Below are positions 23,768-24,058 of a stretch of 30,214 bases of DNA, in pieces. The notes under the pieces are model-generated. The model was not told the DNA's origin, searched no databases, and saw only the letters and a list, made by a program, of their open reading frames with translations. Source of the stretch: a virus. Taxonomy: Duplodnaviria > Heunggongvirae > Uroviricota > Caudoviricetes. Made by a program: the position numbers and the translations under genes. Every line of letters begins with the position of its first letter. Within the stretch, counting starts at the first letter, position 1. The DNA is taken from IMG/VR virus record IMGVR_UViG_2541047931_000006; one strand, given 5' to 3'.

Positions 23768-23860
23768 CCCAACCCGGGGGGGGGGTATCATCCGGCGTAA
23801 AAAACGATCGCTTTGGACACCGCGCCCCCTCTCACGCAGAGAAAAAATTCCCGTTTCAGG

Positions 23861-23990
23861 CCAGTTAACATGTTAACTGGCTGCCCGGGCATTTTTGCGG
23901 TTTTTATCTTTATTATTCAGTTTGTTGTGCGAAAAAATGTTAACTGGCTTTTTCAGAAAATGTTAACCAGGCAGCAGTTAACATTTGCGG
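23861..23990. repeat. cos-like packaging region with GTTAAC-containing palindromes (putative terminase binding sites)
   Basis: Perfect 20-bp palindrome CCAGTTAACATGTTAACTGG at 23861-23880; further copies AAAATGTTAACTGGC, AAATGTTAACCAGGC and inverted CAGTTAACATT; lies between the HNH and TerS genes. Confidence 0.55.
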
Positions 23991-24058
23991 CATGAGACGC
24001 CGGGAAAAATGGGCTGAACCATACCCGGCTGAGTGCGTTCTGGACCCGGGAGGAGGCT

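Follow-up and report, generated by a model that had tools for sequence, protein, structure and literature searches.

The HNH–terS interval

The DNA analysed here, referred to as the window, is a 30,214-nucleotide stretch of a tailed-phage genome (Caudoviricetes; IMG/VR record IMGVR_UViG_2541047931_000006). The subject of this study is the interval 23768–24058, which is exactly the non-coding stretch from the stop codon of an HNH endonuclease gene to the GTG start of the small terminase gene, terS. A first-pass annotation, made from the letters alone, had taken this interval for a cos-like packaging region with GTTAAC palindromes and a G homopolymer. Every feature that it described was found in its place, save two corrections of size, and the overall assignment is borne out: HNH, TerS and HK97-type large terminase (TerL) genes flank the interval, and the virion ends of a relative, mapped by PhageTerm, fall inside it. 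The features are listed below, with the strand where one applies and the basis of each assignment.

23402–23767 (+): HNH endonuclease gene, 121 aa, gp74-like packaging accessory nuclease (Pfam PF01844, E 2.7e-7)
23776–23785: G10 run, the G-rich element conserved in cos right arms, with its end 35 bp before the overhang (sequence and comparison)
23786–23820: rest of the right arm, TATCATCCGGCGTAAAAAACGATCGCTTT and then the conserved GGACAC at 23815–23820 (comparison)
23821–23830: predicted cosN, a 10-nt 3´ cohesive end CGCGCCCCCT with nicks on both sides (homology to Lys8385Vzw, fLi-Aba03 and Bcep176)
23831–23852: left-end conserved box CTCACGCAGAGAAAAAATTCCC, the A-tract box, predicted first bases of the packaged genome (comparison)
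23860–23881: units 1 and 2, perfect 22-bp palindrome GCCAGTTAACATGTTAACTGGC, on the ancestral terS start position (sequence and alignment)
23882–23933: AT-rich spacer of 52 bp with phased T-tracts (six-lineage comparison)
23934–23948 (+): unit 3, AAAATGTTAACTGGC, direct repeat of unit 2 including its flank (repeat search)
23957–23971 (+): unit 4, AAAATGTTAACCAGG (repeat search)
23973–23987 (−): unit 5, minus-strand sequence CAAATGTTAACTGCT, paired in inverted orientation with unit 4 as ATGTTAAC-N9-GTTAACAT (repeat search)
23988–24058: distal spacer with the ribosome-binding site GGGAGGAGG at 24048–24056 (read from sequence)
24059–24622 (+): terS, small terminase, 187 aa, GTG start, SF6/SPP1 G1P-type N-terminal helix-turn-helix (Pfam PF03592)
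24619–26280 (+): terL, large terminase, 553 aa, HK97 type (Pfam PF03354 and PF20441)

The sole PDB sequence match of the window TerL was 6z6d_A (molecule name 'Terminase large subunit', E 1.1e-9), which we take to be the TerL of HK97, and a protease–capsid fusion gene lies downstream of terL. The profile of the TerS family matched 2cmp, 4zc3 and 3zqp in the PDB, which correspond to the DNA-binding domain of SF6/SPP1-like TerS. The AlphaFold2 (AF2) model of TerS contains an N-terminal four-helix domain (helices 4–14, 19–25, 33–41 and 44–56), with pLDDT above 90 over residues 1–50, and its top Foldseek match was 4zc3, the SF6 TerS DNA-binding domain (TM 0.84, rmsd 1.6 Å, 30% identity). Since TerL and HNH are of the HK97 type and TerS is SF6-like rather than HK97-like, the module is a hybrid. 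An HNH gene is located directly upstream of cos and the terminase genes in the window, HK97, D3, SfV, Bcep176 and fLi-Aba03 alike.

Cut site and right arm

Three phages anchor the cut. For the induced Shiga toxin 1 (Stx1) phage Lys8385Vzw (MT225100), PMC7946995 gives a PhageTerm-determined 3´ cohesive end of 10 nt, CGCCCCCCCT. The Lys8385Vzw record ends at ...GGACACCGCCCCCCCT/CTCACGCAGAG... and restarts with CTCACGCAGAGAAAAAATTCCCGTTTCAGGGCAGTTAACATGTTAACTGGC..., and this junction can be aligned base by base with window positions 23821–23830/23831, within an HNH–terS intergenic region that is ~97% identical over its whole length. The two loci differ by one substitution in the 10-mer (CGCGCCCCCT in the window, CGCCCCCCCT in Lys8385Vzw), in the G-run (G10 versus G7) and in the size of the palindrome (22 versus 20 bp). 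The 3´ end of the Acinetobacter phage fLi-Aba03, CGCCCCCCAT, was confirmed by PhageTerm and by a heat/cool restriction assay (PMC7354433). It is annotated as a 3´ cohesive end, lies at the position homologous to the window cosN and, when the ends are joined, is preceded by GGACAC and followed past the cut by CGCACGCACAAAAAAAAT. In Burkholderia phage Bcep176, both record ends show the 10-mer CGCACGTTCC, again at the homologous position, between TAGAC and CTCACGCGCAGAAAAT.

These three independent anchors agree on the predicted cut, with Lys8385Vzw being the decisive one. Fixed-site 3´ cohesive ends, a class trait of HK97-type cos sites (9–10 nt), are present in Lys8385Vzw and fLi-Aba03, and the defined cohesive ends reported for close relatives do not fit headful (pac) packaging. 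The cut predicted for the window, at 23821–23830, lies inside the flagged interval, between the G-run and the palindrome and in neither the G-run nor the GTTAAC repeats. The G-run was also considered as the cut site and ruled out, the mapped ends of the relatives being located 35 bp downstream of it.

Upstream of the cut, the G-run had been described as nine G at 23776–23784, just past the HNH stop, and as either slippage-prone or an assembly artefact. Its position holds, but its length is ten (23776–23785). The suspicion of slippage stands: among 116 distinct close relatives the length varies from 5 to 11 (5 in one, 6 in three, 7 in 47, 8 in 43, 9 in 13, 10 in seven and 11 in two), with a mode of 7–8, and the run slips at its 5´ side, its 3´ end staying at a fixed spacing from the nick. 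The other suspicion does not: judged by comparison, the run is a feature and not an artefact, because the same element is conserved in HK97-type cos sites, although the exact count of ten in the window is not certain. It is the sole run of more than six G or C in the 30 kb window.

A G-rich run ending 31–35 nt before the overhang, anchored on mapped or record ends, was found in the window, Lys8385Vzw, fLi-Aba03, Bcep176, HK97, D3 and SfV. From the run through the overhang, HK97 reads G9...GAC CGCCGCCAAA, D3 reads GGGGTGGGGCGGG...GGACAC CGCGCCCCCA and SfV reads GGGGAGGGGCGGG...GGAC TGCCCGCCCC, the SfV cos sequence being taken from PMC3636060. The likeness to HK97 and D3 comprises the G-run, the 31–35 nt, GGAC(AC) and the C-rich 10-mer (D3 GGACACCGCGCCCCCA versus window GGACACCGCGCCCCCT), and GGACAC or (T)AGAC directly before the overhang is conserved in relatives, D3, HK97 and SfV. 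The comparison was extended to 38 loci of other species, with TerS 28–49% identical, from Enterobacterales, Pseudomonas, Janthinobacterium, Duganella, Herbaspirillum, Burkholderia and Acinetobacter. In most of these, a run of six or more G, or a G-rich run with interruptions, lies ~88–107 nt upstream of the terS start, followed by a conserved ...GGACACCGCGCCCCCTCTCACGCACAGAAAAAATTCCCC..., and outside Enterobacterales the run is often interrupted.

HK97, D3 and SfV share the right arm, and their left arms and terS starts are unlike those of the TerS family of the window. Since the right arm is common to phages of differing TerS families, it would most likely be read by the shared proteins, TerL and/or HNH, at the position of lambda cosQ. 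No description of the G-run in HK97-type cos sites was found in the open-access literature, and it is unmentioned in the accessible parts of the HK97 papers PMC9410871 and PMC11331095.

Across the HNH-associated 3´-overhang cos phages (HK97, D3, SfV, Bcep176 and fLi-Aba03), one right-arm layout is seen, with left arms that differ and track the TerS family. A separate observation concerns LC567818.1 (PPompW prophages; 746–2204), in which the IS110-family element ISEc20 abuts the G-run at about window position 23781, leaving G5. This record lacks the stretch from the tRNA genes downstream of Q up to cos, where the window has its lysis genes and HNH. The ISEc20/G-run junction occurs in at least seven PPompW-type records, and one chromosome match starts at the G-run.

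Repeat units and TerS alleles

The left arm begins with the A-tract box CTCACGCAGAGAAAAAATTCCC, which among all loci carrying this TerS family is the best-conserved stretch of non-coding DNA. Because it is near-identical in both E. coli TerS alleles, with one C/T difference in some loci, this box is not the specificity determinant. Five ATGTTAAC units follow within 121 bp (23864–23984) as two inverted pairs and one direct copy, in mixed orientation, and the array spans +30 to +157 from the predicted cut, between cosN and terS. The perfect palindrome recognized earlier as 20 bp is present but larger, the 20-mer being contained in 22 bp at 23860–23881; it shrinks to 20 bp in relatives with GGGCAG on the left. 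At least three further units in both orientations had also been claimed, and they are units 3 and 4 on the plus strand and unit 5 on the minus strand, with the consensus AAATGTTAACTGGC.

On both strands of the window, ATGTTAAC was observed seven times against 0.69 ± 0.83 expected, a count reached by 0/100 dinucleotide shuffles. GTTAAC occurs five times in the 121 bp versus 13 times in the remaining 30 kb, and by simple arithmetic ~0.007 perfect 22-bp palindromes are expected in 30 kb. Away from the array, an exact copy of the unit-5 12-mer, CAGTTAACATTT, is located at 11037–11048 (~0.004 expected by chance), and a cluster GTTAACCAGTTAACAATTAAC with the 8-bp spacing of the palindrome is located at 4304–4324, in a stretch without any open reading frame (ORF) of at least 90 aa.

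The AT-rich spacer between units 2 and 3 has a constant length of 52–54 bp in six diverged lineages, with T-tracts at or near positions 1, 11, 20 and 28. All four tracts are present in three of the lineages; in the others the first or second is missing, and two have an additional tract near position 40. No match to the integration host factor (IHF) consensus WATCAANNNNTTR was found at up to one mismatch in the spacer of the six lineages. The conservation of phased T-tracts, together with the lack of an IHF consensus, suggests that 23882–23933 forms an intrinsic bend.

The first-pass annotation had proposed the GTTAAC units as terminase recognition (cosB-like) sites, and the comparison of related HNH–terS gaps supports this. 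The units are kept in all close relatives (80 IMG/VR relatives); the repeats are not lost in the presence of the same terminase and change only where the DNA-binding helix of TerS changes. E. coli-lineage TerS occurs as two helix-turn-helix (HTH) alleles, ..AI[A/T]AGYS.KTARVKGS.. (allele 1) and ..AIEAGYS.KSARCKGS.. (allele 2). The unit type was predicted from the TerS allele before the contigs were inspected. Four lineages with allele 1 (the window, P0038, P0010 and P0022) have ATGTTAAC units. Five lineages with allele 2 (P0021, P0035, P0007, P0012 and P0020) keep the layout and show ATGTTTAY or RTAAACAT wherever a unit could be seen, and GTTAAC was found in none of these five; the P0035 and P0012 contigs end early, leaving only the distal units visible. 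The allele-2 counterparts are TATAAACATGTTTATA for the palindrome, ATGTTTAC for unit 4 and GTAAACAT for unit 5. Within each of three lineages, units 2 and 3 share their flank (CTGGC, CCACC or TACCC), the shared sequence being ATGTTAACTGGCT, ATGTTAACCACCTTTT or ATGTTTATACCCTTT. The distal spacer (23988–24058) is wholly different in sequence between the allele-1 and allele-2 cassettes.

In the AF2 model, the changed TerS residues (25, 32 and 35) map to where helix 2 ends and to the predicted recognition helix, at its N-cap and first turn. We read the units as putative cosB-like TerS sites. The HNH gene is as near the units as the HTH codons are, and its C-terminal variants are shuffled with respect to unit type; recombination therefore breaks the linkage on the HNH side and not between the units and the HTH. 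HNH was ruled out as the unit-binding protein, its variants not tracking unit type. IMG/VR scans with the allele-2 and P0038 TerS proteins returned almost only allele-1 loci and added little.

The origin of the sites can be followed in short-type relatives, such as Salmonella phage FSL SP-016, which are without the 208-bp block of the window and whose terS starts directly past the conserved core, at ...GGAGGGTGTAAACATGTTAACAGCG. The window palindrome aligns in register with this start in 17 Enterobacterales loci. The register holds through CAGTTAACATGTTAACTGGC, which places the palindrome at the start of ancestral terS and makes the ATG at 23870 a relic start codon. A small ORF from this ATG, named 'putative secreted protein' in phage 2851, is not conserved (5–41 codons) and was rejected as a gene. 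Short-type terS starts ATG TTA ACA, with TTA ACA as codons 2–3 in 12/12 Enterobacterales loci. The N-terminal Leu codon is TTA in 18/18 GC-rich hosts versus 7/191 other Leu codons of the same genes, and upstream, in non-coding DNA, the half-site persists as GTTAAT or GTAAAC. By this codon evidence, the start-codon dyad is under DNA-level constraint. The terS of the window starts GTG CTG ACA, so the protein does not need TTAAC, yet the site survives upstream.

The inverted pair of units 4 and 5 also has a counterpart inside short-type Enterobacterales terS, the pair AATGTTTATACCCCAGCGGTAAACA at codons 69–76 (NVYTPAVN). The codons of this pair (ATGTTTAT...GTAAACA) are invariant in 12/12 loci except for the central Ala. 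The pair is a probable protein-binding site embedded in the gene of the protein that would bind it. It is near-identical to the non-coding units 3–5 of the E. coli allele-2 spacer, so the sites appear to have moved from inside terS to the upstream spacer. GTTAA hexamers inside terS of beta-proteobacteria, Pseudomonas and Acinetobacter were not relied on, as they may be coding-driven (V-K or V-N codons). Arrays with direct repeats only are found in fLi-Aba03 (3 x AGTTAAA) and in the satellite-like locus L152 (2 x AAAAGTTACAC). In the E. coli contigs L152 and L153, which carry the TerS homologue P0064 (MALTTKKK..., 162 aa), a capsid-like gene and not TerL comes next, which suggests a phage satellite. 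Their core, G7...GGACACCGCCCCCCGT/CTCATTCGTAGAAAATTTT, is the same as that of the window, with two direct AAAAGTTACAC in place of the GTTAAC units.

Packaging model, alternatives and known systems

The interval is likely the cos site of a lambdoid E. coli prophage, served by an HK97-type machine with an SF6-type TerS that binds the units. This reading is carried by the mapped ends, in both position and type, of a 97%-identical phage, by the conservation of every element and by the coordinated change of the units with the allele of the TerS recognition helix. We further infer physical binding of the units by TerS, a need for HNH in cutting (demonstrated only for gp74 of HK97) and a role for the G-run. 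The site would comprise three zones: the right arm at 23776–23820 (G-run, ~29 bp and GGACAC), cosN at 23821–23830, and the left arm with the A-tract box and the five-unit array. A TerS oligomer would bind the array through its N-terminal HTH domains, the bent spacer allowing both clusters of units to touch one oligomer. Bound TerS would place TerL and HNH on cosN, ~30 bp away, where they would nick either side of CGCGCCCCCT to yield the 10-nt 3´ cohesive ends. Packaging would then proceed into terS and, at the next cos, the arm with the G-run and GGACAC would aid recognition or termination.

Several points weigh against this model. The recognition of the units by TerS is comparative throughout, and the end positions come from the virions of relatives, those of this prophage being predicted by homology. 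A single contiguous, divergent cassette of ~350 bp holds both the HTH codons and the units, and their association could partly be linkage; furthermore, the nine TerS lineages are not independent of one another in phylogeny. Among close relatives, nucleotide diversity is only modestly lower in the units (pi 0.02–0.06) than in the spacers (0.065–0.069). Finally, the position equivalent to the mapped HK97 TerS site is occupied here by the invariant A-tract box, which could by analogy be a primary TerS site.

The linkage leaves some room for the units being bound by a protein other than TerS (a host nucleoid protein, a phage regulator or HNH), with the TerS-allele association being linkage only. 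The copy of the unit-5 12-mer at 11037 and the three TTAAC-containing hexamers at 4304 could likewise mean a more general regulator. This is nevertheless unlikely: the N-terminal HTH domain of TerS is the only coding sequence within the co-varying cassette, the HNH variants are shuffled versus unit type, and no IHF consensus is present. Moreover, TTAAC-like units follow the TerS family across Enterobacterales, Pseudomonas, beta-proteobacteria and Acinetobacter, whose other phage genes differ, and HK97, D3 and SfV, with other TerS families, have different left arms. Hairpins in the RNA or DNA of the terS leader, acting in attenuation, processing, stabilization or translational control, are likewise an unlikely source of the inverted repeats. 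Units 1/2 and 4/5 do fold as inverted repeats in the predicted RNA, a GC palindrome and T-runs come after the palindrome, and the change from allele 1 to allele 2 keeps complementarity in both inverted pairs; however, palindromic protein sites yield the same 'compensatory' pattern. The RNA fold of 23831–24061 is not unusual (z = −1.5; 18/200 shuffles fold as well), no terminator-like site was found on the plus strand, where the promoter/terminator scan gave no relevant match, and Rfam gave only a chance-level match (E 0.87) in 23500–24300. In addition, hairpins cannot explain direct repeats, and unit 3 directly repeats unit 2 including its flank, some relatives having direct-repeat-only arrays; the half-sites of the ancestral dyad, 5–6 bp over the start codon, are too weak for a hairpin.

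A very improbable alternative is that duplication or rearrangement of the 5´ end of terS left the 208-bp block behind as a relic with no function, whose repeats persist by recent common descent only. The palindrome does coincide with the start codon of ancestral terS, there is a resemblance between the current start region, GGAGGAGGCTGTGCTGACAACG, and the ancestral GGAGGGTGTAAACATGTTAACAGCG, and the relic ORF has decayed to 5–41 codons. Against this, the five-unit layout, the 52–54 bp spacer and the phasing of its T-tracts are kept though the spacer sequence has strongly diverged, the palindrome has been perfected and not decayed, and the same unit pair is under synonymous constraint inside short-type terS. 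All units seen have changed in parallel between the alleles, which drift does not produce. A restriction-modification cluster (decoy, target or methylation sites) can practically be dismissed. GTTAAC is the HpaI site, and five such sites lie in 121 bp, but sister lineages keep the architecture without any GTTAAC, having only GTTTAY or RTAAAC, and the conserved unit, ~13–16 bp with its flanks, exceeds the hexamer.

Kala et al. (2014) are said to have described the HK97 cos with TerS gp1, TerL gp2 and HNH gp74. HK97 resembles the window in its HK97-type TerL, in an HNH gene just upstream of cos and in a 10-nt 3´ overhang (PMC9410871 and PMC11331095). Its right arm has the layout of the window (G9 run, 32 nt, GAC and a C-rich 10-mer at the right end), and an A/T-tract lies within 25 bp past the cut. 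HK97 gp1 (beginning MADKRIR...), judged by sequence and not by a Pfam scan, has no resemblance to the window TerS (PF03592, SF6-like), which therefore is without the trait of a gp1-type small terminase. Apart from its TerS family, the cos site of the window shows all the tested features of the HK97-type cos class. The left-arm sequences are unrelated: in HK97, a single 15-bp TerS site has been mapped at +15 to +29 (PMC11331095), as opposed to the five-unit array of the window at +30 to +157.

Other systems share parts of the organization. The lambda cos is ordered cosQ–cosN–cosB, with the gpNu1 sites and IHF site arranged as R3-I1-R2-R1 and an IHF-induced bend, and the cosB sites and Nu1 proteins of lambda and phage 21 form a specificity pair. 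The order is like that of the window, with an upstream termination-side element, a nick site and mixed-orientation TerS sites split by a bend before the small-terminase gene. Repeated mixed-orientation sites between cosN and the small-terminase gene, a lambda-type cosB trait, are present in the window, and by analogy its alleles would, as in lambda and 21, be natural specificity alleles that couple sites to the TerS HTH. Lambda is unlike the window in its 12-nt 5´ overhang, its lack of HNH, its other terminase family and its IHF bend, and no sequence similarity is known; the window has neither an IHF site between the repeats nor a lambda-family terminase with 12-nt 5´ ends. The G1P protein of SPP1/SF6 (PDB 2cmp, 4zc3 and 3zqq) has an N-terminal DNA-binding domain of the same fold and family as the window TerS. 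G1P binds repeated boxes in intrinsically bent DNA beside the cut. SPP1 and SF6 package by headful (pac), with imprecise ends and no HNH, whereas in the window the same type of TerS serves a precise HK97-type cos.

The Acinetobacter phages fEg-Aba01, fLi-Aba02 and fLi-Aba03 (PMC7354433) and Bcep176 have homologous TerS (~40% identity), the same cos core as the window and, as in the window, GTTAA-type repeats between the cut and terS. Unlike the window, they have direct repeats only (3 x AGTTAAA) or a single dyad over the terS start, and no 208-bp spacer. Closest of all are the Stx1a/Stx2c phages Lys8385Vzw, 2851, BP-4795, 1717 and YYZ-2008, whose HNH–cos–terS module is ~93–98% identical to that of the window. 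The overhang of this phage group has already been published, and the available part of PMC7946995 reports only the overhang of Lys8385Vzw, with no mention of repeats or G-run. Beyond that overhang, no described cos for BP-4795 or 2851 was found in open-access text, and neither was a description of the unit array, its alleles or the shared G-run. The site belongs to an ordinary kind of element, its evolutionary signature being unusually clear, and the known picture of cos packaging is unchanged.

A broader and more tentative proposal, which we hold as possible but doubtful, is that the cos site is modular. The G-rich run 31–35 bp upstream of the nick would be universal among HK97-type (HNH-dependent, 3´-overhang) cos sites as a cosQ-like element read by TerL/HNH with any TerS family, and the left arm would be an exchangeable specificity cassette. 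Such a cassette may consist of the TerS recognition helix and its five cognate units, with at least two E. coli alleles, ATGTTAAC with T32/V35 and ATGTTTAY with S32/C35. If true, the alleles would decide cross-packaging among up to seven co-resident prophages in enterohaemorrhagic E. coli (EHEC) genomes.

The HNH–terS junction is 93–98% identical in 94 phage records, most of them Stx1a, Stx2c or Stx2a converting phages, including 2851, BP-4795, 1717, YYZ-2008 and JLK-2012. The junction region is present in 1281 of 5426 complete E. coli genomes, at up to eight places per genome. The allele-1 (GTTAAC) spacer was found at 2948 places in 1244 of the 5426 genomes (up to seven per genome), and the allele-2 (GTTTAY) spacer at 12 places in 11 complete genomes, several of them non-O157 Shiga toxin-producing E. 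coli. The packaging module is thus present in ~23% of complete E. coli genomes and in most Stx1a/Stx2c converting phages, and as it is so common, its cos governs which prophage, defective prophage or satellite DNA spreads in EHEC. The cosN, the G-run and the probable TerS-specificity array are targets for the prediction of cross-packaging, for cos vectors and for genome start coordinates in annotation. The natural allele pair offers a ready experiment on DNA reading by an SF6-type TerS in a cos system, and the G-run in common with HK97 is a candidate element in a structurally well-studied model.

Some annotation details of the locus remain to be mentioned. Some database 'small terminase' entries (P0027 and P0054) start MRRREKWAEPYPAECVLDPGGG..., which corresponds to a +1-frame ORF of the distal spacer (window 23992–24165, plus strand) fused to TerS; frameshifts or wrongly placed starts in the annotation are the probable cause. 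The terS of Lys8385Vzw is annotated from an in-frame start 15 codons upstream of the homologous M-L-T start. At the other side of the module, a minus-strand DUF3950 (YlcI/YnfO-family) gene at 23160–23420 shares 19 nt with the beginning of the HNH gene, so that the two are divergent with overlapping 5´ ends.

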